A stretch of 64,000 nucleotides of DNA, taken from positions 2,480,001-2,544,000 of the forward strand of contig OZ374560.1 of the NCBI GenBank assembly GCA_977862235.1, given 5' to 3'. The notes under the pieces are model-generated. The model worked only from the letters and a program-made list of their open reading frames with translations, was not told the DNA's origin and did not search any database. Of the stretch, positions 188 through 51,715 are shown piece by piece. The first letter of the stretch is position 1. Each line of letters opens with the position of its first letter. The translations under genes and the position numbers were made by a program. This stretch comes from Dudresnaya verticillata (taxonomy: Eukaryota).

Positions 188-789
188 AGCGGGGAAGGGT
201 GACGGCGAGGTGTGGGTGAACGGCAGGGAGCGTGAGACAGAGTGCGGTCACAGTCCGGACTGGGGCGGGGAGCGGCACTACGGGTCTGGGAGGGGGTGGG
301 GAAGCGCGGCTCATTACGCGCAAGGCAGAAGCAGAGCGCGTGCGCACGCGCCGGAATGCGGAATGTGTGGGCCAGTAGCAGCACCAGGAAGGGTGATGGT
401 GGTAGTGGCTGTCGGACGTGAGGAGGTGGCCGAGCGCGCGTCGGAATGCGGTGGGAAGCCAAGTCCGAGCGCGTCGGAATGCGGCGGGAAGTCGCCAGAA
501 TGCGGTGTGCGGTCGGGGGGCGCGGGCGGCGGGACGGGGCAGAATCAATTTCTGGAGAATTTTTAATTGGAACTTTTCGGAAAAATCACACCTTTCGGGA
601 ACTTTCGACCCCGGGGGGCCCATATGCCGGAGTGCATAACTCCGAAACTATTTGCGTTTGCTCCGATCTGTTTGCACCACCATTCTCAGGGTAGCGCCCC
701 CTTTTCCAACGCGCTATCGAACGCCGGGATTCAAGGACCCTCAAAAAATTCTGTTCTGTTTTGGAAATTCTGTAGCCGGCGAAATTAGT

Positions 790-2724
790 GTTCAAGGTCT
801 GCCGGTCGCCTTCAGTCAAGCGTACCTCGCATTCTGAGCAAGAAAATATTTCACTGGTGAACTCATCATCATCTAAATCAAGTGTTTTCAGAAACAATCT
901 AAATGCTTCATTGACGCGTTCTCTCGCTGCTGAAGCCTCTTCAAACGCACACTTCAAAGGGAAGGGAGGAGCTTCGTCCAACATTCCACGATATAGAGAC
1001 TTCATAATTGAGTAGGAACCGCGCAATGCTACCCCTTGCCGAGCAGTTCCATCCACCATTGTGTAGAGAAATGATGTAGTGAATGCTGAGTCCGGTCGGA
1101 ATGGGAAGATAGCATCCCAGGCACCCGTGTAGTAGTTCCATTTCCTGCAAGCTAGCATGGGACACTTCCAATCTCCGAAGAAAACCACAACCCTTTCCCT
1201 CGCCAAAGTATGAAGGCTGACCTGTCTGTAGACAAAAAACGGATTTGTTACTGTTAGGTCGCAGTGTCTGCAAACGGTATCCTCATCACGCAAACGTATC
1301 TTTTTGGCCAGTCTTTTCGTGGCTTTCCGTTCTCCTTCACGAGGAAGAAGCGGTCGGATTGTATTAGTCCCGGCGTACTTCATGTCATCGGCATTTGTGG
1401 CAGATGGAAGACGACTAGCCGGTGTACCGGAGGTTGCCATTGTAGAAGGATTTTCAGAAACAGTTTCAGAAACACCAGCAGAAGACTTGCAAGTTCTTTC
1501 ATGGTTGCATGAAACTCTTCGCTCCGAGGAACCTCTACACATGAAACAACGGAAATCCTTTCTCCTCTCCTTCAGGATCGGAACAAACAGATGTCGTTTC
1601 GTATCATATGATATCCAGAATGCCCAAGCTAGGGCCCCAAGATTATCACTGCGGCTTCTCAACCAAGGTTGGGCCCTTATCACAAGCTCAATTAAAGGAG
1701 GGCGACCATTCTCACTCAGAACCGTTGTCTTGTACTTGCCTACCTTTTCAGGGTCCTGAAACGTACTGTGAAATATTCTATACAGACCTTCATGGCTCAT
1801 ACAGACTTTTCATCATCGCATTTGAATGCGATAGACGAGCGCATACCTTGAGAGACGTTGGGAACAGAATTGGCATACATAGAATCACAGGAGCACGTCA
1901 CGCTGAGAACTCCGGTCCCCTGCTTGCGAATAGTTACGCAAACAGGTCTAGGGGGCTTCTTCATGACTTGCCATAGAACTGCAATTGCGAGCTCATTAAC
2001 ACCGTTAACCTCGCTCAGAGCAGCCATTGCTGCAACTTGCCGACCTTCGAACTGATTGTGCAGCAAACGCATCTCAATGCCATCTCTCCGGCTATGAGCA
2101 ATCCATAAAAAGCAGCGCATGCACTCGCGCATAGCCCTGCTCATCAACTCTTGCTCGTTCAATCTGCTCGCAGGAACTGACGTTCTACCGTTGGATGTCC
2201 GTTGTATTTTCTGCGCGGGTTCTGTAAATGGTACCGTCTCATGCCATGGCATACTCCGCATAGGCTGGGCATCTGCATCTTCCGCGGAACCTGTTCTTGG
2301 TGCGGATATATCGTTGTTTGCGTCGCTGGGTTCGTCAGCTGACGGAATACACGGAAATGACCCCTCCTCTCCCTGGCCCCCATTTACTGCATGGGGATGA
2401 AAACTTTGCCCAGTCAAGTCTAGCTCGATGACAGGTCTCCCACTTTCTGATATCGTGTGCCTGCAGTTAGAAATGACACCTCTACTGAATGCATTGAATG
2501 AAGCACTGGAGAACTGGACAGTGTTCACAGTAGCAGTGACTTTTCCTCCTTTCAACGTAGTCCTCATGGTTTTTGATTCCCTGAAGGCCGAATCCGGGAA
2601 AGCCCAGATTGCTTTTCGCTTCATTTCCATCGTTTTTGCGATGGACCCTGTTAGCGATACTATCGCTGGCTATTAGCCCTGAGCAGGGATCTATGAAGAG
2701 TTCTTCAAAACCCTGCTCTTCCAA
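790..2724 (-). pseudogene. Fragmented Cys-rich protein resembling the N-terminal (SWIM/CxC-like) part of a KDZ (Kyakuja-Dileera-Zisupton) transposase, truncated near 790
   Basis: ORFs 1797-2630 and 586-1800 contain VTCSC, CFMC..SCNHERTC, CRHC, WKCPMLACRKWNYYTG..AIF and FSCSECE, a Cys-cluster order seen ahead of KDZ catalytic domains. No DDE core is visible, and the sequence changes character below ~790. Confidence 0.4.
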
Positions 2725-3509
2725 ACAAAACGTGTTTCAGAAACTATTTGTACTTCCGAGCTTGCTTATATGAATATGGAATAACTTGTGCGCTCAGATG
2801 TCGAAATGAATTGAACAGAAACACACACCGGTGTCAGAAACTCAGACAAGTCGGGCAAGAGAGATAGGTCAGAGCAGCTGCGGTCCTAGGACAGAGCTGA
2901 GCGGCGCGGGACGGAAACGTTGACACGGTTAACCAGACCAACTGGGCCTGCGAGTGGCACACGCGTGTGTTTGCCGCCGTGGGAAGGGGTTTCAGAAAGC
3001 GAAAGCGATCCCCGGCCCCGCGGGCGTTAGAAGACGCGCAGGCGCTCTCGTATAGTGATTCATGTGGGGGGCCTCACAGGGCCTTGTGAGAGGGATGATG
3101 CACTTTGCGGAACTCTGAGGCCCACCTGTGAGTGACTCGGGAGAAGCAAAAAAATTATTTGATCCGCCTCTTGAATTAGCCACGGTATTACTTTGATCAC
3201 ATGCCAAGTGCCCTGTAGATGTTCGTCACCCTACTTGCAAACCATACTCGAGTATACCTTGGCCAAGGGCTCATGAATCAGTGCGATTGAGGCGGGCATG
3301 CGTGGAGTGCATTCCTTTACGGCTCCCCGCTTTGGCGCACCATCACATACCCACGGGAAGCTGCATTCAGATAGTCTTGTTTCTGAAACACACTCATCTA
3401 CTGACATTTGCTCTACGCGCAAAAGCGCACGCGAGCGAGGCGCGTTTGACTGACTATTATCCAAATGGCACAACCAAACAACACCACGGAAAGGAATGCA
3501 ATATATCTC

Positions 3510-4281
3510 TGTAGTATAGCTGTCAGCACCCTACCAGCAGCGGCTGTAAGGTATGCTGGCAGCCTTGCACTGTAATGGTGCACACGATGACGCCCGCTGG
3601 CGAGTCGTGGTTGGGCAGCGTGCCCTTAGTTTTTTGTTGAATTAGTAGCGGTCGACCGCATTGCTGCCGGCAGCGGCCGCGCGCCGTGCCGCAAACGACG
3701 CGCCCCTGTGACGCTCTCCGGCATCGAGCTGTTGAGAGGGCCGCTGCCCGTTACGCCCCGCGCGCGCCCACGGGTAACCGTTACCCGGACGTGTCGACAC
3801 GTGTATGGGCGCGCGCTCGCACACCTCCCCCGTTGGTATTGTGGGGCGCACCTACTGTAGAAGTAGTCGTAGTGCACATAGTGTAGGGTATTTAAGACCG
3901 TCGGCCATCGACGGCTCAGTAATCCGGGCAAGCAACAGCTCGCGCTGAAGCTTGCCCCCAGACTTTTCGGGTTCGATCCCTTTGCCTTACGCCAGCGGGC
4001 GGTTTCCCTTTTCCCCTTGCCTCGCTAGGCTTTCCCCTTTCCTTTTTCTTTCCGTCGGCTTCGTGCCGCCCTTCGACAGGGACGCTGGGATCCGACCGCT
4101 GCCTACCCGCGTACGGTACGCCCCGTGCGCGCTCCGGCATCGACGCCGTCGATCCGCACCTGCGGGGCGCACGCCGCCGACACCGCTCTACCAACCCCAA
4201 CAGCTACCCATCGACGGGTCTCTGTGGCGGCTTCGGACCAGCAAGTATCAGACGTCGGATCGACCCGACGTCTATACTACA
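3510..4281. mobile_element. Solo LTR (772 bp), family C
   Basis: Perfect 10-bp terminal inverted repeats TGTAGTATAG...CTATACTACA; 5-bp target-site duplication ATCTC at 3505-3509 and 4282-4286. Confidence 0.9.
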
Positions 4282-5923
4282 ATCTCGATTCTGAATCCAG
4301 TTCGATTGTCCTGTTTCCAGGAGCCGAAGAGCTGGTGGATGCTGCAAAGACTGCCGAGGAGAAAAATGAGAATACGCGGATACATATTCTTAAAGAGGTA
4401 TCGTCGGGAAATAGTCGTCATTTCACGGTAGTGTATTCAAGGACCGTCTCTTTCAGAGATGAGCGCAGTCTGGAAAGTCAGTACATCTCAGCTTCTCTCG
4501 CAATGTTTCTGTCAATCCTACAATTCAATCAGCTGAAGACGCAGAGGTAAGTAGTGTTACGCGGGTTTCCATACAAACAGCAAGCGAGAAGTGCACAATC
4601 CCAGACTAGTTTCCTGGTCAAAAGCGAACGGGAGGCGATTCAAAAGGTACGCTTGCGATCCTAGCGTCTGCAGCGACGAAGTTTATCCGTCTGTCCTCGG
4701 AAATTAGGATGTGGCTGTATGAAGTATTCTTCTCACAGGCTTTCAAGAAGGCTAAAGATGAGAGTAGAGTTTCAGACACACAGATGAGATACAGAACGTT
4801 CACACCTCCGTGGATGAGAAGGACATTGATTTTCGGACAAACGTCAAACACTGGCACGGCTGCAGTTACTCCCACCAGACGTGCGAGGAACGCGAAAGAA
4901 GGGGAACGGATTGCATTGATATTGGCAGCTTTCTACGTCATGGAGGAAGCTTTCGCTAAGCATACACTGGACTAGCTCATTGAGAATTCTGAGATGTTGC
5001 CCGCAGGCAGCAGAAGCAACCGACATGACAGTAGGATCGAAACTGCATCCGCACGACGCAACCAGCAGAAAAATACTCGCACGCCTACGAGAACGAGCAG
5101 CATGCCCGAAGTCAGAAATGCGACTGATTCCATGCCTCCTGCTGCTGGTGCTATAAACAAACATCCGATACCACTACGGTCAGATGGTGCCAACGGACTT
5201 GAGCCGTCCCGGTCGCCTTCTAGAATCGAACAACGACCTTCGTTGACGGCCATTGTCAATCGTACTTCGGAAAAACAAAGTACGCCTAGACCAAGGTCGT
5301 ACAGGATATTCCCACCCCGTACACCTTCCATCACCCCATCCAGTGGATCAGAAACACTCTCTCAGTCATTACATCCGGAAGCTTCCCCGCAGCTTAGAGT
5401 TTCAGAAAACACGCATGGTATCGGAATCGCTGCAGCAGCAGCTGCACCCAGTCCAAGAGTAAGAGCACAGGGTCTTCCTCCGACTCAATAACTGGCCTCA
5501 AAAGGAACTCGCGCGAGGTTCCTATCCACAGGGAGAACCACATCACGGCAAACAGTTGTGCAACGCTCCCCAATAATATTAACTCATGAGATACCGCGGC
5601 AACTCCCCATGTCTGAGTCGAACGCCAGCGAAAGCTATTTGCAACTGCTGGGTGCGTACGACCAACACTCCCTGGAACCTACTGATCATACCAAGAAGAG
5701 ACAAAGGGTCGACGGTACTCCAAGCAGAGTTAATCGCAGCAATAGACATATCTTCATGAGAGAAACGAATTGTAAGTACGCAAATGAAGCCCCATCAACA
5801 GGGGACGCGGGATTCGGAGAATGCCCGGAGTGCTTTCAGAAGACTCACTGGGATTGTTCAGAGGTCTTCGGTAGGAAATGTGAGCTCTGCGACGGATACC
5901 TACAGCCAATGTTTAAGCAGTAA
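4282..5923 (+). pseudogene. Fragmented gene (interrupted upstream by the solo LTR) with a Ser/Pro-rich linker and a C-terminal PHD/RING-like Cys-His finger
   Basis: Chain of + strand ORFs 4125-4550, 4709-4975, 4994-5491 and 5558-5923; the last ends CKYA..GECPECFQKTHWDC..KCELC. Confidence 0.35.
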
Positions 5924-8900
5924 AGAAATTAATTTGTTCCAGAGAATAGTTCTGTGCCACTTCCCCCAGTCCACAGCTTTGTAAACCCAGTATGTCCGAA
6001 ACTGCGCGCAGCTGCTCCGAAAACGCTGGAACATGACTGTGCACTCGTCATCGATACCTCGGTTTCGCGAAATGGTTCCTTCCCCTGCGGGCCCACAGGT
6101 TGCTGGATTGTGTGTGTCAGAAACGCACTCTGTTTGTATCAGAAACTGAATTTGTGCGTGTGCGTGCGTCTACTTGAGCGTGTGCCTGCGCCCGCTTCAG
6201 ACGAAATGTGATTGTGTGTGCATGTGCTCGAACATTTGAATGTCCGCCGAGACGGATGCCTACTCGACGAGCTCGTCATGCGTCTGCAGACTAGTCTGCA
6301 GCCGCATGCGTTGCACAGTACTCGGCAGCACGTGATACCTGTATACATTCTTGTCTTTGCCCGTTTGTGTGATAAGTCATCTTTTGCGTGGGTGCTCGTT
6401 TGACTGTGTGTTTCCATGTCTGCTTATGTGTGAGATCGTATGTTTGTTCTGGTGTGTGTTGCAGAAACTCAGATGTTGCAATAGTGTGGACAATGCTCCT
6501 CATTACCGTGTATCGTATTGCCTTGGGCTCGGATCTGCTAGCGGAGTGAGGCAGAGCTCTGGAGGCATTTTACGGGCATTTTGGGCAGCCTAATCTGACG
6601 GCATCATATGAAAATCGGGATCAAATGCCCTAGAATCCGGATCCATGTCTGAAACCACCTGCATAGTGCATGCCGGTCTTTGGTTGTTTGCGCCCTAATA
6701 CTAGTCACCGATGCGTGCTATTTTGGTGTTTCTGAAACCGAGCAAACAAAGGACGGTAATGGAATGGTTTAAAGCTGGAAGTTGTGCAGGACAGGCAGTT
6801 ATTCATTGAGTATCAGAAACACTTTCGAAACGACAACTTTGAACTGTCACTGGGGCTTGAGGAAAGCAATTTCCTTCCGAAAAACTTCAGAAAAGGTCTC
6901 TCCAGCACCCCTAGAATACACAGTGAGCGTCTCAAGAAGTTATGCTGGAAGCTGTGTTTCTGAAAACCTTTTGGTAGAACTGTTGCACTCATCGTCCATG
7001 ATACCTTTGCCTGTTCCTTTCTAACAAATCGAAAAGAGTTTCAGTCAAACACTTTCCAATTGTCTCTAATAGCCCAGAGCATTGTAGTGCAACTGTGAAA
7101 GGGCTGTTTGTATGATGTGAAACCCCCTTACCTCGCTGTAATGTATGTTTATGCAGTCATTTCGGTTGCAAAATTCTACAGACCGGTACTTTAAAGGGAT
7201 TCGTGTTTTCGTTTCTGAAAACCCTTTCAGTAAAACCAGGGAACAATACCAAACCATTGGATATCGTTATATGGGTGTCAGAAGATGTCTGTAAAGCTCC
7301 AGGATGGACAGTACTGCTACTCAGCACTCAGCAGAGTACTAAGGTCAAGACGTAACGAGCATAAAACGTCTTGTGTTACAGAGGTACTACAGGGTGTTTG
7401 TGATGTCTTGAAGTGTTTCAGAAACATATTAAGTGGCTAACTGACATGGGAGGCTGCGTTGGAGTATTGTGACATTTGTCACCATGGCTGTTATACACTC
7501 CCGGTTTAAGGTTCTCATGTTCTCGTGGCCCCACATTACATATATTCATTACCCCTTCTCACGTGAGGTAAGAGTGTCAGGAAACAAAGAGAAGCAGAAG
7601 ATACAGGAGGATTCAAACATCATGTGTTTTGAGACGGGTGGCTCTCTTCTTGCCACGTTGAATGCCCGAGAGTTTTCTTCGACACAACAAACCCCTCTTA
7701 TGCTGGGGCAATGCAGAGAGACTGTTTTTTGGAAACTAAGAGACATGGGCAAGCTGTTCCAGCAGCATTGGAGATAATGTCCTTGGAAACAGCCCGTTTC
7801 AGTCCCCATTTGCACGTTTCCTCTCGTTTTTCTTGAGCAGAGAGATTCATTGCGACCTTACTGAGATGTTTGGGCCCGATTGTCGGAATAAATTTGCCAA
7901 CAAGGTTCATTTTCTGCAGTTGTCCTCACAAGAAGGGTCTCGACGAAGGCGTCTTCGCCAACTATCGATGCCGTCACGAGTCAGGAGGTGTGACATGGAG
8001 GCAGTTCTCAGATGTCGAATGAAACGTGTAACAATAGCCATACAGTGCAATAATGGGCTCTTACACTAACAGAACCTTACAGAATGCTGACAGCACTGGC
8101 TTTCACCATCTGACGCTCCAACGGTACTCTGACATGACTGGCTCATTGTGCCAATTGGCTACTTCGTAATTCCATGTGGTGCCCTGTCTTCGCGAGTTTC
8201 CACTGTGTGGTGAATTCACTTCTAAGTGCAGATTGCACGGACTTTTGATCCGCAGTGATCCGTGATGCCCTCACACGCGCGTGTACAGTGTGCACACACG
8301 CGTATAGCAATGCCATGACAATGCATGTTGCCCTGCCCGAAAGCCCAGGATTTTACCGCGGTAACACGACCTGACTCGGCTCTAGCCGCGGCCGCGCCAA
8401 CTTGGAAGAAAACACCGAAACTCAATCGTCACATCGACTAACGGTCCTGGCCACACCGACTGCCGAGTCCTCTTCAGCGCATGCGCTGCAGTGTTTCGAC
8501 CCTGCAACCCTTTTCCGCCTTCCACACCAACTCACAATTCTCGCGCACGAGTTTTCTGACACTTAGCTTCCTCCTTTCTAGTCTTTCTGCTTTGCTCACT
8601 GTGACACGAGCGTACGCTCGTGATTTCACCACCGACATTGTGGTACAGTCCGCAGTCCGCGCGGTGGCGCGCGGTGGCAACTGAAAATCCTCGTTGAGTT
8701 TCAGACACTCAGAACCCACACGCCCGCAGCTGCGCCTAGGCAAACAGGCCAGTCTGCCCCCCACGTTGCTTTTCGAACACCACGAATTCGCTTAATCTTA
8801 CTGCCTCCACCTCTACACAGACGCTTTGTGCTTGTTTACACGCGTTAGTTCTGCAACAGGAATTTCCCTCGAGGGTGTCGATCGACGGGAAGACCACGGA

Positions 8901-9197
8901 GAGTTTCTGAAACCAGAAGCCCTTCCGGAAAGGTCACTCGCAGCCGCGGCTCATCAGCCCGAGCTACACATAAGGCTGTTCAAGACAACTGTTGGTACGA
9001 TTCTTCCCTTTAACCGGTGCGACACAACCCGGAAACTCCTATCCGTGTATCCGTGTTTCTGAGACTCCTTTCGGCGCATCGCGTGACGGTGGCTCCAATA
9101 CAGATATCTCTGTATCGGTGTTTGAGAAAATCTCATTTGGTGCCCTAGGGCACAACCAAGCTTGGTTGCCCTTGGCTTACAATTCTACTGTGTTTCG

Positions 9198-12100
9198 ATG
9201 GATTCTTTGTGGTCTGCTCTTCAGAAAGTGCAGGAGAAAGTCTCCATTGTGAGCCTCGAGGCTCACTCCGCCCAAGAGAACAGTGCCCTCGTTGACCGTC
9301 TTCTCACTGAGAGAGCTTCCAACTATGACTACGTGGCTGCATTTCCCGCGATCGCTGACGCTATGGGTACTTCTTCAAACGCCGTTCGTGCTGTTCTGTA
9401 CAGCACGCGGCTGTTCCAGGTTCCCAACATCAGGTCGTTCCTAAGTGCGGAAGCAAGTTCCCTTCGTGTGTTTCAGAAACGTGAGATCTACGAGTTGGGG
9501 GAGAGAGGGCACGATATGGCATTGCTCACGGCATTCGCCTCCACGCAAGAGCGGTTGATTTCAAGCAACTCTGATGTTGACAGCTTGGCTAGGAAATTCG
9601 ACCAGGCTTCCAGGGATGCAGTTGCGTTCGCATTCTTGCGCGCCGCAGAGTTTTCCACTTCCATGTGTGGTTACCTCGAGGCCTATGCTGATAAAGCGAC
9701 CTTGAATGATGTTTCAGATACAATACGTTCATATAAAGAGCCCTTCTGGGGTACTGGTGAGATGCGCAAGCAGGAGAAGCCCTTATTCAGTCTAAGGGGT
9801 ATGCGAATTGGCTGGGACATGACAAACAAGGTCATTATGGCGTTTTGTGATGATCTGGTTTGGAATGTCACGCAACAGGACAGATCAGAGCACGTCAAGC
9901 TCCCTGACTGGAAGAAGGAGGCAACGAACTGGTGTAGAGTGGTAATACAGGAAATTATTGTCTGGATGTTCTTGCGTGTCGGCCAATTCACGCTTTCCGG
10001 AATGGATCTGTTGAAGAACCAAGTCGGAAGGGCTTGGGAGCGGCTCGCTGAGACTCTTATTCGCACTTTCGATGAGGATGAAATATTGCCGGACGCCAAC
10101 AGCACACTGCATTGGAACGTTGTCAACTACGCACTACAAGATCGCGTTTCGCAAGAGGACACTACCGTCCTGACAGGTGGGGGGCTTTTCGTTCGGTTCT
10201 CTTTGGACCAGGATACTTTCGCTCGTGTTTTTCGGCGAACGAGAACGCATACATCAACGCCAAGAGTTTCAGAAACTGCTCCAAGGAATTTCCGAAACCA
10301 TATGGCCCCACCACCACCAAGTGATAACGGCAGTCATGCAGGGTCGCCTTGGATGGGGAATCATGAACACGCAGGGCGGGGCACATATTCACATAGAGGA
10401 AGGGTACATTCGGGTGGCCGCGGTATTGGTAGAGGAAGTGATGCGCACTGGGATGCGCATGCGCAGCAGTACAACCCCCGGGGTCAAGGCCGTGGATCCG
10501 GACCGGCCGTGGCCGGCCGCGGTCGCTGGTAATTCCATGACCGGGTCCGTGACTCAGCCTATTCCCAAAGTCCATGGACTGCAGAATATTGGCCGGGGTA
10601 CGCAGGCCCGAATAAGCGGCGCAGGATGGAACCTGAATTTGGCGTTGAAGATCCCAGGCATCCAGGTTACAGATATCATCAGGCCCATTTGAGAGAGCAA
10701 GAAAGGCGTGTGGGAAGGGAAGAGATCATGAAATCTGCTGGACTCCCACCGAGCACACCTCCTGAGGTTTTCGAGAAGAAATATCGTGAGGACATCCAAG
10801 CGCTTCGCAACTTCCTTACCAATCGCCCGTTAGACGCTAAGCGATTCGAGTACGATGTCCCAGATTCGGACAATGAGGACATGCGATTGTACAATGAATT
10901 GTACGGAGACGTTGACAACGACCCGGCCGAAATCAGGCAGAGAGGTCGAGTCATCAGGAGGTCCGCAATTGGTTTTGAGTATGATGTCCAAGTTCTATAC
11001 TCCCAGATAACTTCCTGGGTATTGATGTTTCCGAAACAAACAACCACGTTATAATGGGTAATGACTTTGGTCCCGTGAATCCAGAGGGGGACGGGTTTCT
11101 ATCTCAGCTTCTGCACACAAACATAAACATGTTCTACCGAGGAGCGAGTTGGATTCGCGATTCCGTGTGCTACGCTACGCATTGGAAAGCTCTGCAGTAC
11201 ATGGAAATTCGTACATACCTTAAAATGAGTATCACTCAGAGATACCGAGGCATGATATCATCCCCGCTTGAATTCCGGAGTCGAGCACACGCTGGTGGGA
11301 CAAGTTCACCCTTCGTTGAACTCGAACTTGAAGATGTGTCCCATTCCACATTTGTGACGAACTTTCGCGCTTCTGCGGTGAAGTCCAAGGAGTCTCAGAG
11401 ACTAGTAGATGAATTTCCGGGAATGACAGTTTGCATTGGGTTCTTCCGAGTTTGTGACACGGAAAACCGAAGGAAGGTTGCTGGTCCCGTCAACTCAGCG
11501 CTTTTTCTGTTAATTGTGCGCTCGATCAACCTGTTGAGACTGCCAGAGAGTGATGCAGAGTCTACGGACGTGCAAATTGTTGCTAAGGTCGTAGGAAACA
11601 AGCAGTTGGTGAAATCCTGGAAAGAAGGACCTGAACCAAAAGACATCTGATGTCTCGCGCCGTTGGTTGTTCTAACCCCGCAGCAGCGCATGTTTCGTGC
11701 AGTGCATGAGTCGGAGATGTTACCAAAGTTTCTGAAACAACTCCTATTTTCCCAAACACGCCACAAAAGCCCAGAGACAAGCGATGATACCCCCTTAGAC
11801 TTGCTGGGGGAAGGTGTGGACCCAGGTTGCCTCGAGTATGTATCTAATTTGGGCAGACATGAGGCAAATTATTCACAAAAACGCGCCTTGCTGACCTTTC
11901 TAAGATTGGTAGGAGATGCCGAAGCCCGCTCTAGCTCAGTTTCTGAAGTTATGGACCCCCTGGCACCGGTAAGACAACTGTGATATTGTCGGCCATCGGT
12001 GCCCTTTTGCACCATTCGCGTGTCGGCCACATTAGGGAAGGGGTTGTTGCGGAGAACGCTCTCAAAAGAGAAGATGGAGTCCTGAGATACTCAAAACAAT

Positions 12101-13745
12101 CTACAAATCCATTCGGGATGCGCATCTTGGTTTGCTGCAGCTCAAATCAGGCAGCGGACAATGTTGCGCTGAAGCTCAAGGACGGAGTCCCTGATGGACA
12201 CGGAGGGCGGCGCCATATCAACTTTGTCAGGATCGGCCGCAAAAAGTACGATTATGGAGAGTTGCAGAAACACTCAGCTACCGAACTTGCTCTACCATAT
12301 GACAACGAGTTGTACAACGTACCTGGCCCTGATGATGAGCCCCGCACTAACCCTTCAAGAAAGGCATTGGGCCAGATGATACAAGAGTCAGTTGTTGTGC
12401 TGTGTACCTCTTGAAAATCTGGAAGCAACCTCTTCTCAAACATGAAGCCGTACTTTGGGTCTATGTGTTTCGTAGTGATCATTGACGAGGCTGCCCAGTC
12501 CTGGGAGCCTGAGTCATTGGTTCCCATTACTGCTCTCGGGTGCAAGAGGAATGTTTCTGAAACTCTACACATCTTGCTTGTCGGTGATGATCATCAGCTC
12601 CCACCAGTACTGATGATGGAGAATGATGTCCAAGGAGTCCTGCACACAATGCGCGTCAACTTCTCGTTCCGACACCAAAAGACTTCTTTGTTCGAGCGTC
12701 TGATGAGGCAACAGGCTTGCCCTGTTGCTTGGATAGTTGAGCAGTATCGCTCGCATCCTGGAATTGCTTTCATTCAGACGTATCTGACTTATAGAAATCG
12801 TGTGAAGTCACCGGTAGATGTTTCGAGGTACAACAAAGTGTACAACGACGAGAAAAAGATGCAGTTAGCCCCACTAACGTTTGTGGATACTGTGCGACTG
12901 TCCACTCGTTTCGAGACGAGGAACGCCCTAACTCCGGAAAATATATCAACAAGTGCGAGGCACGGCTCGTTAGACTGGTTCTACAGCGCGTATGGGATCT
13001 TGCACCATCTGAGCTTCGCGGGAAGATTGCAATCCTATCACCCTACAGGAGCCAAGTTGAGTTTCTGAAACACTTTCTCAATATGCCCGGTGGCGTTCTT
13101 GATGGAATTGCAGAAGAAAACCCGGCAGTGCTTATTGACACCGTTGATGCTCTGCAAGGATCGGAGAGACGAGTCGTCATCCTTTCCATGACTCGCAGCA
13201 ACACGCAAAGTAATATTGGCTTCCTCAAGGATCGGAGGAGGATAAATGTTGCATCAAGCAGAGCGATCATTTTGCTCGTTATTGCTGGCGATGGCAGTAC
13301 GCTCAAGGGTGAGAAACAAATCGGAGATTGCGAGCGGGACCCCTCTCTGAACTGTGATCGGATTGGTAACGTGTACCACATCAATCATTTCTGGAGGAGC
13401 TGCCTGGATGGGCTTCACGGCTCCAGGTTGTGGTTTGTTAAACCGCAAACGCCGGAAGAGGTAGATCCACTTACATCTCCCTATGTTGAGCAGAACTATT
13501 TGATCGAAGAAGGTGCTGTGAATGGTTCTGTGGACAACTTAAGTCCATCCAAAGGAAAAGCTGGGCTTACGCCCTCTATATTGCAGGGTGCTGTGGTTAC
13601 TGACACACAAGCAGACAAACTGGAAGCTTCAGGTGCCCCTGTTACATATAGCACGGTGACTGGAGCAGGTGCTGGAAACGGTGCGAATACTCAGACAGTG
13701 CCTGAAAAAGTCCCAGATAGTGACAATAGCAAGGAACGTGAGTAG
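9198..13745 (+). pseudogene. Upf1/Sen1(NAM7)-like superfamily 1 helicase with an N-terminal extension and RGG-rich linker; inactivated
   Basis: Walker A GPPGTGKT (11953-11976), RILVCCSSNQAADN, IIDEAAQ, LVGDDHQLPP, SLFERL, QYRSHP, TVDALQGSE and RRINVASSRA. In-frame stops at 10530, 11648 and 12412; frame breaks near 11054, 11945 and 12930-13070. Confidence 0.88.
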
Positions 13746-13830
13746 CGCGCTGCATGTTTGCACTGGTTGTCATGGTGAGGGTAGTACGGAGTGGTTATGT
13801 GCAGGTCGTGTCTGGTGGCGTACTGCAATG

Positions 13831-14475
13831 TGTGGAAGAATGAGCCGCAGCAGAAGTGCTGGCGCACTGTAAGTCATTTATGCGCATTAAGGTGTAAGAC
13901 GCCCCCGCGCATCAAGCTGTAAGGCGCGCACAAGCGCCGTGCGCTGTAAGGGCGATGCGCCCCGCTGGCGTCCCTGCTGGCACCAACATTGATAGCAAAT
14001 TGCCATTGGCTAATTTATTGTGGCCGCTCACGCGTCCCGACGCGGTACTACCACTAATCCGTATTTATAACTGACAACAGTACAATTAGATTAATAATTA
14101 CATCTAGAATAGGTTAGAATAGCTCATAGGAGGTAAGAGCATTTTCGGCTCTGTATACTTAATAGGCCCCTGAGTAGCAGGGGCCTCCTGAATAGAACCC
14201 ACGGTGGGTTTCGGGTCTTTACCCTTTTTCTGGAATTCACGGACTCACCGTAACCTCCCTTTCAGGTGCTTTACGAGCCTTGCCTCCACAAGACGGTTGC
14301 TCTGTGCGAGCGGGGTGGCACCGCCCCTTTTGCCCCTTTTCCCTTAGGCTCTGTGCCTTTCAAAGTCTCTACCAACCCCTTTTCCCGAGCTACCTAAACT
14401 AGTGTGTTGTGAACCGTCAGGACAGCTGTCCTACCCGGTTGGCGGGTTTCTGCCTTAACGGGCCATACTACTACA
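13831..14475 (+). mobile_element. Solo LTR (645 bp) of Gypsy family A
   Basis: TGTGGAAGAATGAG...CCATACTACTACA, closely similar to the LTRs at 30079 and 42609; TSD CAATG at 13826-13830 and 14476-14480. Confidence 0.95.
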
Positions 14476-15679
14476 CAATGGTTTTCGTTCTCCCGCAAAT
14501 GTTTGATGCTTTCATGAAGTCAAAGGCTTCACTGAAAGCTTTGTTTCTGAACCATTTCTCTGAGCTGTGCACATGAGTCATTACGCGTCTTTTCCGAGAG
14601 TAGATGGGGTTAGAATGTTAGCGGGGGCTTCTCGCAATGGCGCGCAAGGAGTCGTTCCGGGTTCATGCCATAGAGTTAGCGGTAGCTGCGTGGTGTAAGT
14701 GGCTAGTTTGGGTTAGTGACATTACGGTCACATACTTGTAAACATGAATACAGCGGTTACGTAAGAATTGGTTTGCAGAAACGCGAGGTTGCCGTTGGGA
14801 TGTATATCCCCATTTGGGTGCCTCCCTTCTTCGCCATGGAGAACGGTGTTGTGTCCACGGATGGTTGTGTGCGTGCGGGGCAGGAAAGCCGTTTGTAGTA
14901 TTAGCAAGCATGGCGTCGCGGCTTAGCGTGTCGGTAGTTGTGCGTGGGGATGTGTATCATAGTGCGCTGATGGTTGTGCGGGGGCATGCTTGTGTGTGTC
15001 GACTTCGAGAAAAACTGAAGGTAAAAACGTCAACAGAAAAGAGCTCGGTCGCGCATGATGCGTGGTGTGAGCAAGCCACCAGAGAGCCCCTGCCCGCTGC
15101 AATGCAGAAACCTAATTAAAAAGCTCCGTGACAATAACACTATTTTAATTGGCTGAAACAATATTGCAATCAGCCATGTGCCGAATTTTAACTGGTGGCT
15201 GCCAGAAAACCAGCGGTGTACGCTTCCCAATTCGCCCCACCTGCCCACTGCCGACAACCGCGGTCACCGCGGGGGACCGCGGTCCCCTCCTGAAGGCCGC
15301 GGCCCACCCGGTGGCCCGCTGACCCACCCGGACCATGCATGGCAAGTGGAATTACAGTGGTTCCCCGCGTGTCTTTCTGCTTGTCACAGGCCATCACCCT
15401 TTGGTCACTGGAGTGTGACGAGCATTGCTGGTCGCCGCATCAGACAGGCGCGTGTCAGTTGGCTGCCCAATAGTTTCAATCACAGGAAGTTGGAATGATT
15501 GGTACAAAACCCGTACATGCACCCGTTCAGTTTATGAGTTCCCTGCTTTTGTATAATACATATAGATATGCGCGTACGACGTCCTTTAGAGCTGTACAAG
15601 TCTGTCCAACTTGCCTGCCCCCGGTGGCGTGCGCTTCTCAACCGTGGAGTTGCAAATGCTACCACCTAAGCCTCCTTAA

Positions 15680-16408
15680 GAGCATCTCTACCGGTTCGTT
15701 ATTCAGTAAATATATACAATGTTTTAGTATAGATAGAATTTCCCATCTCTACCGCGGCGAATCTATTCTAATCGCGTAAAATTTCAATAGAATACCCAGC
15801 CGAAAATGTCTATTGATCACCCCAATAGCGCACGCGCGTGAGGTATTCTATTGATACACAGTGCCATTCTCTGCTCCATCATTGGTTGCGCAAAGCGCGC
15901 AAAGACTGAGAGAGGTACTGTACACAGTACCGTCCATCTTCCGCCACAACCCATGCTACATCGCACACTTCGTCCCCGCTCGCCCACCTCTACCACTCAC
16001 GCACACACACCGCCAACATGGGCCGCGGGAAGAGCTGGGACATCAGCATGAGAACGAGGTCCTCGCCCGCGCCTGGATCGCTACGTCCGAGGATCCAGTC
16101 GTGGGTGCGGACCAGAAGGCCAAGCGCTTCTCCGAAGCCATGCACCGCCGCTTCATCGAGAAGGGACCACAGCCGCCGGCGGTCCCCGACGGCAAGTACG
16201 GGAACAGGCCGGTGATGCATTGTGTCGAAGTTGCTAGGGCAGGACGAGGAAGGAGCACTGTGGTCCGGATACGGTTAGAAATAAATTCAACCGGTAGAGT
16301 TTACACAGTCGTTGTATACACACCCAAATACCTATCTTCAGACCATTAGATGCACCCAATGAGCGCGGAACATATGGTGAAAAAACGCGCGTACCGGTAG
16401 AGATGCTC
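15680..16408 (+). mobile_element. Non-autonomous PIF/Harbinger DNA transposon carrying a remnant of the Myb/SANT-like ORF1
   Basis: 16-bp TIRs GAGCATCTCTACCGGT / ACCGGTAGAGATGCTC; TAA duplication at 15677-15679 and 16409-16411; internal MGRGKSW..ENEVLARAWIATSEDPVVGADQKAKRF motif typical of Harbinger ORF1. Confidence 0.9.
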
Positions 16409-17808
16409 TAAGGGGCTTCTTGTAAATCTTCTAAAGAAAGGGATATCCTCTTGATCTCCGGGCACTGGGTCGCTGCATCATTCCCGCAGTCGTAGATTGT
16501 CAGCAGATTGGAACGAGTTCGTACAGTACTGTACTACTTTTGTTGCGGCAAAGTCACGAGTGTTCGAGAGATTTCTCCGTGTCGCGCTTGCTGCAGCACG
16601 TCGCTCTGCTGCTTGGGCCCTGTTCGCTTTTCGGCATATCCATTTGCGAGAGCGGCTCGGGAACACCTTATGTTGCATCATCGTGCATACGTTATGCTAT
16701 GTTTTCTTTTTATGTGGCCACCGAGTGATGCTCCCAGAAATATCTCTCACCTGTATTGCAAGGGTAAAGTATTGCAGCCATCGTGATTCTTTGTATGGTT
16801 GTAAGCAGTGCACCGAACAGGTTATCGAAGCCCGCAGCACGGTACCGCACACATTGTAACGCGCTGGTACCAAATTGGTAAAGTACAAAAACTCTGTTGT
16901 CTGGTTAAACGCTCATAACCAACGCTCGTGTCTAACGATATAATTGCTACAGATAGACGAGTCAGAAGTAGCGTCTCTGCTGCACAGTAACTATAAAGCT
17001 GAGCGAACCTCAAAATGCTTTTTGTGAGGATGGATTTGAGGACGCTGCGTCTACCACAGAACAGAAGTTGGCTCTTCGCATGAATATACTTCTTCTTGAT
17101 AATACTGGCAGTCTGATATTCCGTTGTTCACCGGAAAGCATGCGGGGGTCACATTCTGAAGGATTCCGTGAATTCATTCGAGTAGTTACGCGCTAATTGC
17201 AGCCTCAAGCCTCGAAGCCTCGAGGATAGTGTTTATCAATAGTATCTCTTCATCATCCTTATGGCGTGATGCTTGAGGATGATGTTTGTTGATATAGCTA
17301 GCTTTACCGAGCCTGAAAGACTTTATAGTCTATAACGTTACCTCGCAGGAACAGGAGTTTGTTGCTGTATACGTGAGATGGAGACCTTTATGCATAGGAA
17401 AGACTACAGCCCCCTAAGGGGCTTACCTAAAACTCATCTGAAAGGCGACGGTGGAAGAGAAAACAGCGGTTAACAATCACCGCGACAGATTGACGTACAA
17501 GAGAGGTGAGGTGGGTGAGAAGAGATAGTTTTTCAGATATCGGCGAAGTACCCTTCATACGTGTATTCCCCCTTTTTCATCAGAAATCTTCAAGCTCATT
17601 ATGGGGCTTAGCAAGGGCTGGGCTCTAGAGGCGACGGTCTACCGGCTTACGCCAGATACCAGCCTCTGCGAACGCATTTTAGAACTAAAGAAGTGAGACC
17701 AGTAAGATGGCACAGTATGTACCCATAGCTAGCACCTGAAACAACAATAAACAATAGACATGAACTGTAGCAACTCAAAGTTAGACATTCCTCCTCCTTC
17801 GAGTGAAC

Positions 17809-26979: not shown

Positions 26980-28200
26980 CGGCTACCACCCCGGCTTGTT
27001 AAGCCTGGGCGGGCGGTTTTACCGTTAGATGTCGGCATCTTCTAAACGGGGTTGTTATCGACAACTTTAAAACGTAGGATTCGGTCCTGTGGTTGCACTA
27101 ATCGGGGAACTTCTCCCTAGGATGGCAAACTTCTCAGAACCGTAGTTCTCGGGGTTACGGGCGATTCTGTCCGCGTGGAACTCCCAACGCGCGCGCCCGT
27201 ACAGCCCGTATACAGACGTATTTTTTTGATGACAGGTATTACGATAACCTGCAGGAAGAGTTCCTTGAAGGGGCGTCACTCCACGACAAGGATCTTGTTC
27301 CTTGTACACGATTAAAAACCGCAGAAGCGGTGGCCGTTGCTTGCCTCGAATTTGACGCAACTTCGAAGCTTGATGTGAAGCTGAGAAACCGTCGACACTT
27401 GGCCGACTAGGATTTCATCCTCAGGAAGTAGTTCCTTGAATTCTTACACGGGGAATTCTCGTCCCGTGGGAAGGTCCGAACGACGACTTGCGGATAAGGT
27501 AGTAAAAAGGGGCCGACCCTGAAAACGATTCTAGGTCGGGAGACCACTGTAGTAGTATGGCCCGTCAAGGCAGAAACCCGCCAACCGGCAATGACAGCTG
27601 TCCTGACGGTGCACAACACACTAGCTTAGGTAGCTCGGGGAAAAGGGTTTGGTAGAGACTTTGAAAGGCAAAGAGCCTAAGGGAAAAGGGGAAAAGGGGC
27701 GGCGCCACCCAGCTAGCACAGAGCAACCGTCGTGTGGAGGCAAGGCTCGTAAAGCACCTGAAAGGGAGGTTGGGGGGTTACGGTGAGTCCGTGAATTCCA
27801 GAAAAATGGTAAAGACCCGAAACCCACCGTGGGTTCTATTCAGGAGGCCCCTGCTATTCGGGGGCCTATTAAGTATACAGAGCCGAAAATGCTCTTACCT
27901 CCTATGAACTATTCTAAGCTATTCTAACTGTCATTATTAATCTAATTATACTGTTGTCAGTTATAAATACGGATTAGTGGTAGTACCGCGTCGGGCCGCG
28001 TGGGCGGCCACAATTAATTACCCAATGGCAATTTGCCATCCGATTTGGTGCCAGCAGGGACGCCAGCGAGGCGCATCACCCTTACAGCGCACGGTGCTTG
28101 TACGCGCCTTACAGCTTGATGCGCGTGGGCGTCTTACACCTTGATGCGCAAAAATACCTTACAGTGCGCCAGCACTTCTGCTACGGCTCATTCTTCCACA
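26980..28200 (-). mobile_element. 5'-terminal fragment of a Gypsy family A element (5' LTR 27548-28200, PBS, leader, gag start)
   Basis: Reverse complement of 30079-31290; PBS TGGTCTCCCGACCTAG at 27531-27546; truncated about 20 codons into gag. Confidence 0.92.
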
Positions 28201-30078: not shown

Positions 30079-30721
30079 TGTGGAAGAATGAGCCGCAGCA
30101 GGAGTGCTGGCGCACTGTAAGTCATTTGTGCGCATCAAGGTGTAAGACGCCCACGCGCATCAAGCTGTAAGGCGCGCGCAAGCACCGTGCGCTGTAAGGG
30201 CGATGCGCCTCGCTGGCGTCCCGGCTGGCACCAAATCTGATGGCAAATTGCCATTGGGTAATTAATTGTGGCCGCTCACGCGGCCTGACGTGGTACTACC
30301 AATAATCCGTATTTATAACTGACAACAGTATAATTAGATTAATAATGACAGTTAGAATAGCTTAGAATAGCTCATAGGAGGTAAGAGCATTTTCGGCTCT
30401 GTATACTTAATAGGCCCCTGAGTAGCAGGGGCCTCCTGAATAGAACCTATGGTGGGTTTCGGGTCTTTACCCTGTTTCTGGAATTCACGGACTCACCGTA
30501 ACCTCCCTTTCAGGTGCTTTACGAGCCTTGCCTCCACACGACGGTTGCTCTGTGCGAGCTGGGTGGCGCCGCCCCTTTTCCCCCTTTTCCCTTAGGCTCT
30601 GTGCCTTTCAAAGTCTCTACCAACCTTTTCCCGAGCTACCCAAGCTAGTGTGTTGTACACCGTCAGGACAGCTGTCCTTGCCGGTTGGCGGGTTTCTGCC
30701 TTGACGGGCCATACTACTACA
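30079..30721 (+). repeat. 5' LTR of the family A element
   Basis: Direct repeat of 42609-43258 with scattered substitutions and a 7-bp indel. Confidence 0.95.
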
Positions 30722-30722
30722 G

Positions 30723-30740
30723 TGGTCTCCCGACCTAGAA
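30723..30740 (+). promoter_or_regulatory. Primer-binding site, probably tRNA-Tyr
   Basis: TGGTCTCCCGACCTAGAA is complementary to a tRNA 3' end ...UUCUAGGUCGGGAGA-CCA; G72/A73 fits eukaryotic tRNA-Tyr identity (inference). Confidence 0.7.
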
Positions 30741-31232
30741 TCGTTTTCAGGGTCGGCCCCTTTTTACTACCTCATCCGCAAGTCGTCGTTCGGACCTTCC
30801 CACGGGACGAGAATTCCCCGTGTAAGAATCCAAGGAACTACTTCCTGAGGGTGAAATCCTAGTCGGCCAAGTGTCGACGGTTTCTCAGCTTCATATCAAG
30901 CTTCGAAGTTGCGTCAAATTCGAGGCAAGCAACGGCCACCGCTTCGGCGGTTTTTAATCGTGTACAAGGAACAAGATCCGGGTCGTGGAGTGACGCCCCT
31001 TCAAGGAACTCTTCCTGCAGGTTATCGTAATACCTGTCATCAAAAAAAATACGTCTGTATACGGGCTGTGCGGGCGCGCGCGCTGGGAGTTCCACGCGGA
31101 CAGAATCGCCCGTAACCCCGAGAACTACGGTTCTGAGAAGTTTGCCATCCTAGGGAGAAGTTCCCCGATTAGTGCAACCACAGGACCGAATCCTACGTTT
31201 TAAAGGTTGTCGATAACAACCTCTTTTAGAAG

Positions 31233-33919
31233 ATGCCGACATCTAACGGTGAAACCACCCGCCCAGGCTTAACAAGCCGGGGTGGTAGCCGTACCGGCAG
31301 CTTATCCTCCGTGAGGACCACGGGAGCAAGAACCCGTGCTGTAATAGCCGCTTTGGCTCGAGGTCCTACAGTAGGAGAAGTGGAACGCCCGCCACGAATG
31401 GCGGGCGCACCAGGAGACGAAGACCCGTCTGCCCATGGAAAGGGACAGATCCCTGAAGGAGAAAATACGGCCCGGACTGCAGCCGCAAGCACCGCCAACA
31501 TTGGTTCGAATGAGGGTCCGGACCCTAGTATGCCGCCACCGCAGATGTTTCGAGCTGGTTACAGCCAGCACGACACAGGCGGATTGGCCTTAGAAGAAGA
31601 AACGACTTCATCGCTTCCACCCGATATCGGAATGCCGATGAGAACGAAGGCAAACTCAAGCGACCAACGGTGCTTCACGGAGCGTGAAATTGGTCACTTG
31701 GTTGAGACCGGCATCGAGAATGCTCTCGGAACTAGCGTATTGGCGCTGCTTGAAAGCCAGGCGGACGAAACCCTCACACGGGTGAAACGCTATTTCGACG
31801 ACGCCACCGCTCGTCGAGACGACCAGCTACTGGCTAAGTGCCAAGAAATGGTCATTTCTCGTTGCCAACAACGCCCCTTGAGGGTTTTAGAAGAGGAAAG
31901 GGTCGAGACCCTACAAGCCCAAGTGGACTCCATGGGTGACCAGTTGGAATCGGTTCATCTTGAATTAGATGAAGCCACGAAGGCTGCCGACCTTTCCAGG
32001 ACAGAAGCCGCAATGGCTATCGCGGACATTCAATATAACGTAGACAACGCACGGTGCGTTGAACAGGATAGAGCCATCGAGGTCCTAAGGACAGAACTCG
32101 ATGAGGAGAAGCGTCGTGTCGCTTTTCTGGAATTACAGATGCGGCGCGTAACCCGCGAGAGGGATAATATCCCTGAAGTCATGAGACGACGCTCACCAGT
32201 GCCTCGCGGCACGCGCGACAGGCGTAGGAGGCTACCCCATAGGGGGTCGGACAGTGGGTCCCAAGGTGAAGGGGATGGAGGCCGCTTCCAACAGGGTTGT
32301 CAGTTCAAAAGACCAAGTGGGTCTTCTGCGCACCGCGACCAAGTGGATTCTCATCGTGACCGATATACGAGTCATCGTCACGAAGAGAATCCTCGGTCAG
32401 GGTCTCATCCTAATCCAGGTCCATCGGATGAAGACGGACCGGGCTCCCGTTCGCATTCCAGACCGTCATGGTCTTCGTGGAGGGGTCCCCGACGCTCCGG
32501 TGTGAAGGAGCTGACTCCTAGGAACCCTGCTTTCATACAGGTTTTGTCCTATAGAAGGTATAGGTTATTGAACCTGGATGATTACCGCGGGCCCGAGGTG
32601 ACCGAGGCAACCACGAAAAAATCAAACGGGTTAAGTCCGTTATGCGGAGTCGCCGGTTTGACGGGAGTGACCCAGTGTCAATCATTGGCTTCTTAGCCAC
32701 GCTGAAGAGGCAGCTCGATCAAGCCCACATCAGCGAAGGTGCCGCTATCCTCGTCATCCCCGATTTCCTCGAGAAGGATGCGAAGGATATGTTTGAAGCG
32801 AATTTTGACGCTGCGGGTGACGACAATGGTGGTTTCACCGAATGGCCCGAAGCCGTGAATTACCTTCTTCGGACATATGCCAAGGACGTCTATATTGAGA
32901 GGATTGCCTCTGAGATGGACACCATGGCGCAGGAGCCAGATGAGGACGAAGTAACCTTTTCGAGAAGGTTGCAGAACAAAGCGCGTCGAGTCGCTGGTGT
33001 GTACACCGAACAAGACTTGATAACCAGGTTTATTCGGGGGTTGTTACCAGCGGTGAAGCCGCTTTTAAGTACATCTTCCTTGGACCCAAGGACTGCCAGA
33101 CTGGCGGATCACGTCGAGCTTGCGACTGCACAGGGAGATTCCCATCGGGCGCTAGTGGGTGGCGGACGAACGCCAAAAGCGAATAGGACGCTACCAAGGA
33201 AGACCTTAAAGAAGGTTCGTACCCACAAGTCAGGGCGGGCGCTCCTAATTCGCCAGGCGAAGGATGCATCCGCCTCCGATTCGGATACTCCAAAGAGCAG
33301 CGGCTCTGATGCGGAAAGTGAAGACGCAGTCGTAGCTGCCATCGCTAACGAAGCGCCGCCATCAACGGCGACCCAATTGGATTCGTGGTCGACACAGTAT
33401 TACTACGACCAACCGTATCACGGTGAAGTTGACGCGGTACTGCAGAACTACAATAATAGGCTCCCAGCCTGGGCACAGCCAACCAGGACTCAACGCCCTG
33501 GGTGGGTGACGGTTGAAGACCAACCCAATGATATCTGCTTCGAATGCAATGGCATTGGCCATAAAAAGCCCAACTGTCCGCATTTGGCTCGAACCGATGA
33601 GCAGTCTTTTGAGACTTTAAAAAGAAGGCAGTTTCATCAACTATCACACGAGCAAAAAGCGTGGCTGGCGACCGTTGGCCGACTGCCGGAGTTCGCTAAC
33701 GAGCGAGGGCCCGCCGGGCCGCCCATAGGGCAACGGATGGATCCCCGTCAAAATTTGGGTGCAAGCCAAGGGGGAAATCGACAGGTTCAATTTCAACCTC
33801 GACTGAACCACCCCATCGACGCTCCGAGGCAAACGCCCAGGTCAACACGCCAAGGGACTCGTCCCTTCCCACCACCTCCACCGCTACCGCGGTCGCCCGC
33901 AACTAAGGCGAAAAACTAG
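31233..33919 (+). pseudogene. gag: Gypsy gag (ORFs 31233-32696 and 32642-33919, one frameshift)
   Basis: Coiled-coil N-terminus, retrotransposon-gag-like FDGSDP..QEPDEDEVTFSRRL..RFIRGL and Zn knuckle CFECNGIGHKKPNC. Confidence 0.85.
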
Positions 33920-42062: not shown

Positions 42063-42608
42063 CTTGGTGCCACGGGGTGAACAGGTCTCCTATCCAGCCA
42101 CAATGGCTATTCTTGGCTATTTGGCTATCGTGCACGTGACGGCCCGGCCGTAGGAAGAGGTGCACGGGTGGCGACAGGGTACTGCGGGTCCCGCTACTGC
42201 GATGTGCACAGACCGCCGCAACGGCAGGGGGATGCGAAACCTGGATTGGTCGTAGCCGGGCGCAAGGCGCGGACGATCAGCTGAAGATGGTGGTGCGAAG
42301 TGGGGATGTGCACCGGGTACTGTAGCGGAAGCCGCTGTGAAGTCGCTGAAGTATGCAGCCGGTTCGGGCTTTCCGCGCAAAAGCGCAAACTGGTCGTCGG
42401 AATAGTCAAACGGTCGCCGTCGAGACTGGAACGGCGAAATCAGTGATTTGTCACTACTGCGAACGGGTCCACAACGGCTGCCAGTGGCGGAGGTTACAAG
42501 TGAGCCGTCGGCCCAATACACCACTGGGATTTCAAGCTCGCCCAAGACAGGGCCAATAGAAACAGCCTTGCAGGCTTCGCGGGTCTCTCAGCCTTAACGA
42601 GGGGACCG

Positions 42609-51400: not shown

Positions 51401-51715
51401 GTGTGACCACCAACGGCGGTGTCGACATCACAACCGATTATCAGAAAAACCGCGGAGAACTCACAGACTCGTACGCACCCGACCCGGGCGCAATACCCTT
51501 GGTGGATACTGGCGTGAACGACGCGAGCCCACAAGCGTTTTCTGCTTCACAAGAACTTTCCAAGTACGAAACAGCAACGGTCTGTTCCCCGTCAACCGCC
51601 GCCCAAACTCCGGCTTTTGAGTCGTTTCCATTATCACCAAGCTCCCCAACTGCCCGATCGAGTACAAGACCAAATTCCGTTGCTTCTTTCTGTTGACTTT
51701 TTTTGCCTTCACACG

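Follow-up and report, generated by a model that had tools for sequence, protein, structure and literature searches.

What keeps an 11-bp palindrome recurring through one block of genes, within coding sequences as well as between them? The question is raised by a 64-kb stretch of DNA from Dudresnaya verticillata (GenBank assembly GCA_977862235.1, contig OZ374560.1, positions 2,480,001 to 2,544,000), hereafter the window and numbered from its first nucleotide. The palindrome, GTTTCWGAAAC, lies in and around the broken genes of what is likely a decayed giant DNA transposon of the KDZ/Zisupton type. It is in strong excess and, within the window, confined to this block, its imprint can be read in the element's proteins, and its variants follow the tolerance pattern of a binding site. 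We consider it a real and strong feature, and there is good evidence that it was selected at the level of the DNA.

An exact-word scan of the whole window recovered 11 perfect copies, all within positions 1463-13071 and each where the initial annotation of the locus had placed it, and the many near-copies mentioned there amount to 18 copies with one mismatch, the first at 885 and the last at 14543, with none further downstream. Thus 29 sites with at most one mismatch lie in 13.4 kb of element DNA outside inserted long terminal repeats (LTRs), against none in the remaining 50.6 kb of the window, and the half-site TCWGAAAC, with 40 occurrences in the first 16 kb, is missing from the other 48 kb. 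The number of perfect copies expected in 622-13829 was 0.0062 under an order-0 Markov model, close to the 0.006 first estimated from equal base frequencies, 0.023 at order 2 and 0.20 at order 4; an order-5 model, which is already trained on the motif, gave 1.08 (P = 2e-8). Among 300 Markov resamples at each order, the maximum was one perfect copy at order 1 and two at order 3, and a blind gapped-palindrome scan of the block returned GTTTCWGAAAC as the top word (log10 P = -25.8).

The block had been drawn as a 12-kb unit at 885-13071 and described as saturated with the motif. Its confinement holds, but its end does not, as the field passes a second inserted LTR and extends to about 14,783-14,790, and saturation is an overstatement: the sites are randomly spaced at one per about 370-460 bp (mean gap near 370 bp), with no periodicity at 3, 10, 10.5, 11, 147, 165, 180 or 200 bp. 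No tandem array in the window contains the palindrome. Site density is about two times higher in non-coding than in coding DNA (15 in 4.4 kb versus 13 in 8.1 kb, P = 0.034), so that 13 of 28 sites are coding. Both solo LTRs inserted in the block lack sites (0 in 1,417 bp; P = 0.054 if sites were uniform, which is weak alone), as the initial annotation had noted for the inserted solo LTR that it recognised, and no site was found in or near the three host kinase-WD40 genes and the other elements of the window.

Imprint on the element proteins and character of the sites

The open reading frames (ORFs) of the element, 2,731 codons in total, contain 6 perfect, 14 near and 19 half-site copies, compared with 0.38, 2.6 and 3.5 after synonymous-codon shuffling, and none of 2,000 shuffles equalled the observed counts. 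Seven peptide positions in these ORFs are able to encode the perfect motif (0.29 expected), and the motif is used at all seven, six times perfectly and once with a central C; the other ORFs of the window (5,524 amino acids, aa) offer no such position. When 7 x 1,024 palindromes were scanned blindly from the helicase peptide alone, GTTTCNGAAAC ranked first (log10 P = -6.5). A motif that is dispersed in coding DNA, and that can be recovered from protein sequence without the DNA, implies that every site over the full length of the element was under selection. The coding copies had been said to lie in different frames, and two codon offsets are indeed used, a VSET type and an xF[QL]Kx type, but the third is unused at up to one mismatch.

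Two homologues of the helicase, retrieved when its N-terminal piece served as the query of a full HMMER search, allowed a comparison of the coding sites: P0005 (1506 aa, E = 2e-109) and P0007 (1381 aa, E = 2e-89); a third match, P0006, was left out owing to its repetitive sequence. Neither homologue has a position able to encode the palindrome. The sites align to both without gaps, and codons within the motif are identical to the homologues in 14% (4/28) and 5% (1/19) of cases, whereas in the remaining codons identity reaches 39% and 38% (P = 0.005 and 0.002, two tests that are not independent). Because the motif codons are so much less identical than the rest, the sites sit at tolerant positions, where they likely replaced other residues, a direction of change that we infer from two homologues. 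Since the excess outlasts synonymous shuffling and amino acids were changed at the sites, the palindrome acts at the DNA level, as had been proposed from the sequence at first sight.

The word itself was correctly recognised, but the consensus is longer than the 11 bp first given: it spans 15 bp, GWGTTTCWGAAACWC, with W at ±6 in 46/58 arms and C at +7 in 32/58. With up to two mismatches, GWGTTTCWGAAACWC has 23 matches against 0.46 expected, 22 of them inside the block. The mismatches of the 18 near-copies fall mostly at ±3 (8) and ±5 (6) and never at ±1, where decay would have led to 4.9 changes (P = 0.003), and transitions account for a single one of the 17 off-centre changes, compared with 49% expected (P = 1.6e-4) from a decay spectrum of four LTR copies with 56 substitutions only. 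As ±1 is spared and transitions are rare relative to this local spectrum, most near-copies are tolerated variants and not decayed perfect copies. We dropped the idea that G/T swaps reflect the read-out of a keto group, because G-T/A-C changes dominate the local transversions too (23/32).

The arms of the palindrome do not covary. Among the two-mismatch words, compensated doubles make up 2/13, set against 18 single uncompensated mismatches, and the flanks favour W and C but pair no better than shuffled sequences or chance. The sites, with a spacer of 1 nt, have a mean RNA folding energy of -0.24 kcal/mol. The missing covariation and the near-zero folding energy therefore favour recognition as a DNA duplex, likely by a symmetric, putative protein, over a hairpin. 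This pattern of invariant inner and tolerant outer positions bears out the binding-site character suggested at the outset.

Anatomy of the motif-bearing block

The features of the block are compiled in Table 1. In the ESM Atlas, the second transposase frame had CxC4 clusters as its top matches (0.94, 184 shared features) and a KDZ+CxC4 cluster at 0.86, with a recognition of 1595, thus weak; in Pfam, the transposase frames had no match up to E 10. Because the Atlas recognition is low and Pfam is empty, the KDZ/CxC4 assignment is a lead only.

Table 1 Coordinates of the block, its genes, the inserted LTRs and the palindrome sites in the window
Feature	Position	Strand	Remarks
Motif-bearing gene block	622..14790		likely a giant DNA transposon of KDZ/Zisupton type, decayed; left end truncated or beyond the window; right end at 14.8-15.4 kb, not defined
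Likely transposase, N-terminal half	622..2630	-	two frames, break near 1800; C-x-C / C-x2-C / C-x-H clusters, CxC4-like region
Solo LTR 1	3510..4281	+	TG...CA; target duplication ATCTC; motif-free
Gene B, broken	4302..5923	+	likely GT-AG intron of 63 bp at 4547-4609; long low-complexity middle
Helicase gene, broken	9198..13745	+	~1,500 codons; 5 perfect and 3 one-mismatch sites
Solo LTR 2	13831..14475	+	target duplication CAATG; of the Gypsy family at 27.5-43.3 kb; motif-free
Perfect site	1463..1473		transposase ORF, read VSET; one-mismatch partner 12 bp off at 1451
Perfect site	2734..2744		intergenic
Perfect site	3379..3389		intergenic
Perfect site	6728..6738		no recognisable gene
Perfect site	7415..7425		no recognisable gene
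Perfect site	8903..8913		upstream of helicase gene
Perfect site	9470..9480		helicase gene, read VFQKR
Perfect site	10266..10276		helicase gene, read VSET
Perfect site	11728..11738		helicase gene, read KFLKQ; homologues RILDT, AFLCI
Perfect site	12553..12563		helicase gene, read VSET; homologues WTSGDR, SARRR region
Perfect site	13061..13071		helicase gene, read EFLKH; homologues DALRD, DAILD; sole perfect 15-mer
One-mismatch sites	885, 1451, 2831, 2989, 4769, 5399, 6114, 6136, 6458
One-mismatch sites, continued	6810, 6956, 7211, 8698, 9055, 9711, 11027, 12261, 14543
Densest site cluster	6112..7427		9 sites of matrix score >=12 in 1.3 kb; inside 5.9-9.2 kb, no recognisable gene

No KDZ catalytic domain follows the N-terminal half, and the ORF stops after ~680 codons at ~622, in a GC-rich stretch. 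KDZ transposases may exceed 1,300 aa (PMC12477816), so a truncation is likely; the Zisupton architecture comprises SWIM, CxC4 and KDZ (PMC11343200). Judging from the sequence, the catalytic half was likely lost where the GC-rich stretch begins. This stretch (1-621) holds eight GAAYGCGG repeats, two GTGTCAGAA words resembling a motif variant and a tandem duplication of 116 bp; it is likely the terminus of a different element, by which the transposase gene was cut. A comparison of 1-1000 with 14476-16500 revealed no terminal inverted repeats beyond 11-bp chance words; the left end is probably missing, and no convincing pair for an 8-bp target-site duplication was found around the undefined ends. 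Some KDZ elements lack terminal inverted repeats (PMC11343200, PMC12730594). Overall, the block appears to be a dead, left-truncated giant KDZ-type transposon, read from one copy.

Gene B ends in a finger of the form C-x2-C-x4-H-x2-C-x7-C-x2-C, which by its pattern we take to be PHD-like, and the gene had no family match in Pfam, NCBIfam or PHROG. Six-frame translation of 5.9-9.2 kb showed no recognisable gene, in a stretch too decayed to exclude a lost one; the Pfam scan omitted four short frames at 6.8-7.4 kb. The helicase gene encodes a novel helical N-terminal domain (350 aa), a disordered linker and an Upf1/Sen1-like SF1B helicase, with matches to AAA_11/AAA_12 in Pfam (E 2e-15 to 8e-30), Walker A and B motifs and Sen1 and Upf1 as the closest solved relatives. 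It is broken by in-frame stops at 10530, 11648 and 12412 and by frame changes at about 11.0, 11.95 and 12.92 kb. Upf1/Sen1-like helicases of ~1,400-1,500 aa with the novel N-terminal domain form a family, here likely as transposon cargo. A helix-turn-helix-like stretch at about residues 50-68 of this domain was discarded as a pattern reading that Pfam, PDB and the Atlas did not support.

Related-locus scans of metagenomes and viral contigs yielded no relative of the block, and ten ORFs of the window had no identical entry in a collection searched by exact sequence. The sole genome match, L121, proved to be a chance match of 9 residues in a long bacterial ORF resembling an outer-membrane receptor. 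The exact 15-mer occurs at at least 120 loci in viral contigs, and among the matches listed only L047 had more than two near-copies; these are explained by a Ser/Thr-rich protein repeat, and L047 was rejected as a motif-bearing relative. A word-based protein search gave no match for the transposase ORF or the helicase N-terminal ORF, and only four generic helicases for the C-terminal piece of the helicase.

Possible readers of the palindrome

The reading that we put forward, and to which we give about an even chance, is that the palindrome is bound by a protein with two-fold symmetry, which the element family encodes and which marks the family's own copies against host silencing. The flanks of the sites are unrelated and no tandem units exist, so the sites may have arisen one by one through point mutation while the family was active. 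Copies with more sites would have propagated better, by a margin that paid for the residues altered at tolerant positions, and a reader encoded by the element would cover it along its length and keep copies open or active. Such a reader would prefer GAGTTTCTGAAACAC over a ±1 mutant. Candidates are gene B with its finger, the zinc-binding N-terminal half of the transposase and the novel N-terminal domain of the helicase. Element-encoded, family-specific motif readers have precedents (PMC5735166; 10.64898/2026.08.24.746577), and in the AtMu1 and TnpA case the transposase itself can be the reader (10.64898/2026.08.24.746577).

Several observations weigh against this self-mark. C>T changes affect 4/70 CpG sites versus 16/262 other G/C sites in the four LTR copies; in the absence of such an excess, CG demethylation is an unlikely output and a target of the VANC type is not evident. 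The opposed mark would more likely be histone- or RNA-based, and H3K27me3 and small-RNA-linked non-CG methylation have been reported for red algae (PMC8566409). No DNA-binding domain was recognised in the element proteins (Pfam, NCBIfam, PHROG, PDB, Atlas), and two single-sequence AlphaFold models were unusable (predicted local distance difference test, pLDDT, 35 and 34). The evidence comes from one dead, truncated copy within the 64-kb window, the decay spectrum has a small basis, the KDZ assignment hangs on one low-recognition Atlas feature match, and neither a KDZ catalytic domain nor inverted repeats nor a target duplication were found for the block. Finally, in a comparison of limited power, neither P0005 nor P0007 showed an imprint of its own palindrome that rose above noise.

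The initial annotation had likened the palindrome to the VANC motifs, a comparison that stands as a concept but not in its details. In the Mutator-like VANDAL elements of Arabidopsis, a short motif accumulated in one transposon family, and self-recognition over kilobases has been proposed (PMC5735166). Within the window no other element has the palindrome, and it is also missing from the two homologous proteins. The VANC21 and VANC6 motifs, however, are non-palindromic words of 8-9 bp that lie in tandem repeats outside coding DNA and were lacking from the exon probes examined (PMC5735166), whereas here a palindrome of 11-15 bp is singly dispersed, with its coding sites (13/28) accompanied by amino-acid changes. 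CpG hypermutability is also missing here, the element is KDZ-like, and its ORFs gave no Mutator or plant-transposon match in Pfam and no recognisable VANC-like gene. TnpA of Spm/CACTA and the AtMu1 transposase resemble the present case in their family-specific, locally dense motifs of 8-10 bp and an element-encoded reader, but TnpA binding and its effect are confined to the termini, whereas here the interior is covered, at ~2 sites per kb compared with the 4 per kb called high density in that study (10.64898/2026.08.24.746577). By analogy, the palindrome would work like the VANC and TnpA motifs, yet it is no member of their group, being dispersed, palindromic and within coding sequence.

Like KDZ/Zisupton elements, the block exceeds 10 kb and has extra ORFs, nested insertions and a putative CxC4-like zinc region (PMC11343200, PMC12730594, PMC12477816), and it differs from them in that catalytic domain and ends were not found. 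The available parts of these descriptions mention neither an internal palindrome field nor a helicase cargo, and a literature search that covered few subscription papers and excluded Repbase found nothing on a dispersed palindrome or an Upf1-like helicase in KDZ elements. Known self-recognition motifs (VANC, TnpA) come from plant elements, where they occupy non-coding termini or tandem repeats, and no such system has been described for the KDZ superfamily or the algal lineage in the literature covered. If the inferred reader exists, the palindrome would be a novel variation on the known transposon self-recognition motifs. The 15-bp consensus offers a precise probe with which to find a new DNA-binding protein of defined sequence specificity, and a means to study how algal transposons of 10-30 kb escape silencing or bring their ends together. 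Should the reader open chromatin, it might become a targeting tool in algae.

It is rather unlikely, in our judgement, that the sites serve movement instead, with a transposase or helper loading along the element and compacting it to let its ends pair across more than 14 kb, as ParB does on parS. The even spread of the sites over the whole length, coding DNA included, would suit such loading, and the GTTTC...GAAAC arms presumably resemble those of bacterial parS, with a different spacer. Cut-and-paste transposases usually need only terminal or subterminal sites, which counts against it, as do the lack of a ParB-like ORF among the window ORFs scanned (Pfam, NCBIfam, PHROG) and a density peak that lies mid-block (6.1-7.4 kb) and not towards the visible right end. 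Giant algal transposons do bear ParB-like genes and inverted-repeat arrays (10.1101/2025.02.11.637652; PMC12477816). Plavaka of the red alga Bostrychia is likewise a giant algal DNA transposon with accessory genes, in which inverted repeats have been proposed as self-binding sites, and PAG genes are also found with Zisupton elements; its repeats form tandem arrays beside the ParB-like PAG3, unlike the palindrome dispersed here through all genes (10.1101/2025.02.11.637652). The block also differs from Plavaka in that it has no recognisable gene for ParB, a methylase-SET protein or a 2OG-oxygenase and that the cargo is an Upf1/Sen1-like helicase.

We regard it as unlikely that a host transcription or chromatin factor reads sites which the element gathered for open chromatin or germ-line expression. 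This would agree with the missing identification of an element-encoded binder and with the higher site density outside coding sequence, but the three host kinase-WD40 genes and the other window elements have no site, the helicase homologues lack motif peptides, and no such factor is described among the matches listed in the literature on motif strings.

We consider it quite improbable that the motif arose neutrally, through a sequence-specific bias of mutation or repair in the element, for instance a site-specific methylase with strand-biased repair. Cyanobacterial HIP1 and the drive behind bacterial uptake sequences are parallels: both motifs are short, dispersed in coding DNA in several frames, bias peptides and occur genome-wide in bacteria, whereas the palindrome keeps to a single, likely mobile block of a eukaryotic genome. 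Random spacing, the near-total use of the available peptide positions and the location at poorly conserved codons are all compatible with such a bias, and giant transposons of red algae can bear DNA methylase genes (10.1101/2025.02.11.637652). It should, however, reach the adjoining DNA and the inserted LTRs, where no site occurs, and no methylase ORF was recognised in the window.

Largely refuted, and very improbable, are a hairpin or cruciform signal, a by-product of tandem repeats or excision footprints, a codon artefact and chance: the word is palindromic and VSET codons alone led to six near-copies in the viral gene L047, but the 1-nt spacer, the uncompensated mismatches, the missing flank covariation and the folding energy argue against structure, no tandem array bears the motif, the sites align to homologues without gaps, and shuffles never came near the observed counts.

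A wider form of the self-mark reading, possible but doubtful, is that giant eukaryotic transposons can carry a private barcode, similar to an uptake sequence, from one end to the other through their own genes and at the expense of the proteins, and that an element-encoded reader coats the element and recruits the Upf1/Sen1-like helicase to strip silencing RNA. Element barcoding would then be general in the lineage, since the unrelated Gypsy class would bear a structural barcode too.

Neighbouring elements and genes

The Gypsy element concerned is an LTR retrotransposon at 30079-43258 (interior 30722-42608, 11.9 kb; partial second copy at 26980-28200) without GTTTCWGAAAC. Its interior, whether coding or not, is dotted with 85 AG-closed mini-hairpins built as AG-xy-N5/6-y'x'-CT, a density of one every 140 bp. 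Of the AG-N9-CT words 46/73, and of the AG-N10-CT words 39/72, pair at their inner bases, with about 4.5 expected for each, loops of 7 and 8 are likewise in excess, and three specific forms are still in excess after synonymous shuffling. These mini-hairpins covary, their inner pairs varying yet still pairing, unlike GTTTCWGAAAC, and show no consistent G-T strand bias; none were found in the host genes of the window or in its Copia element. Between pol and the 3′ LTR lies an intact antisense accessory ORF of 772 codons (39747-42062, minus strand) with no Pfam match, a candidate reader of the hairpins.

The Copia-like element, frameshifted and located at ~16.5-22.5 kb on the minus strand, shows no palindrome signal. 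A small element at 15674-16414 with 25-bp inverted ends and TAA/TTA-like flanking bases is presumably Harbinger-like, and a fragment at 25.3-27.0 kb (plus strand) resembles a DIRS-type retroelement by translation. The right part of the window (44195-62959) carries three tandem intronless genes for a protein kinase with WD40 repeats, each with 7-10 copies of near-identical 129-bp units.

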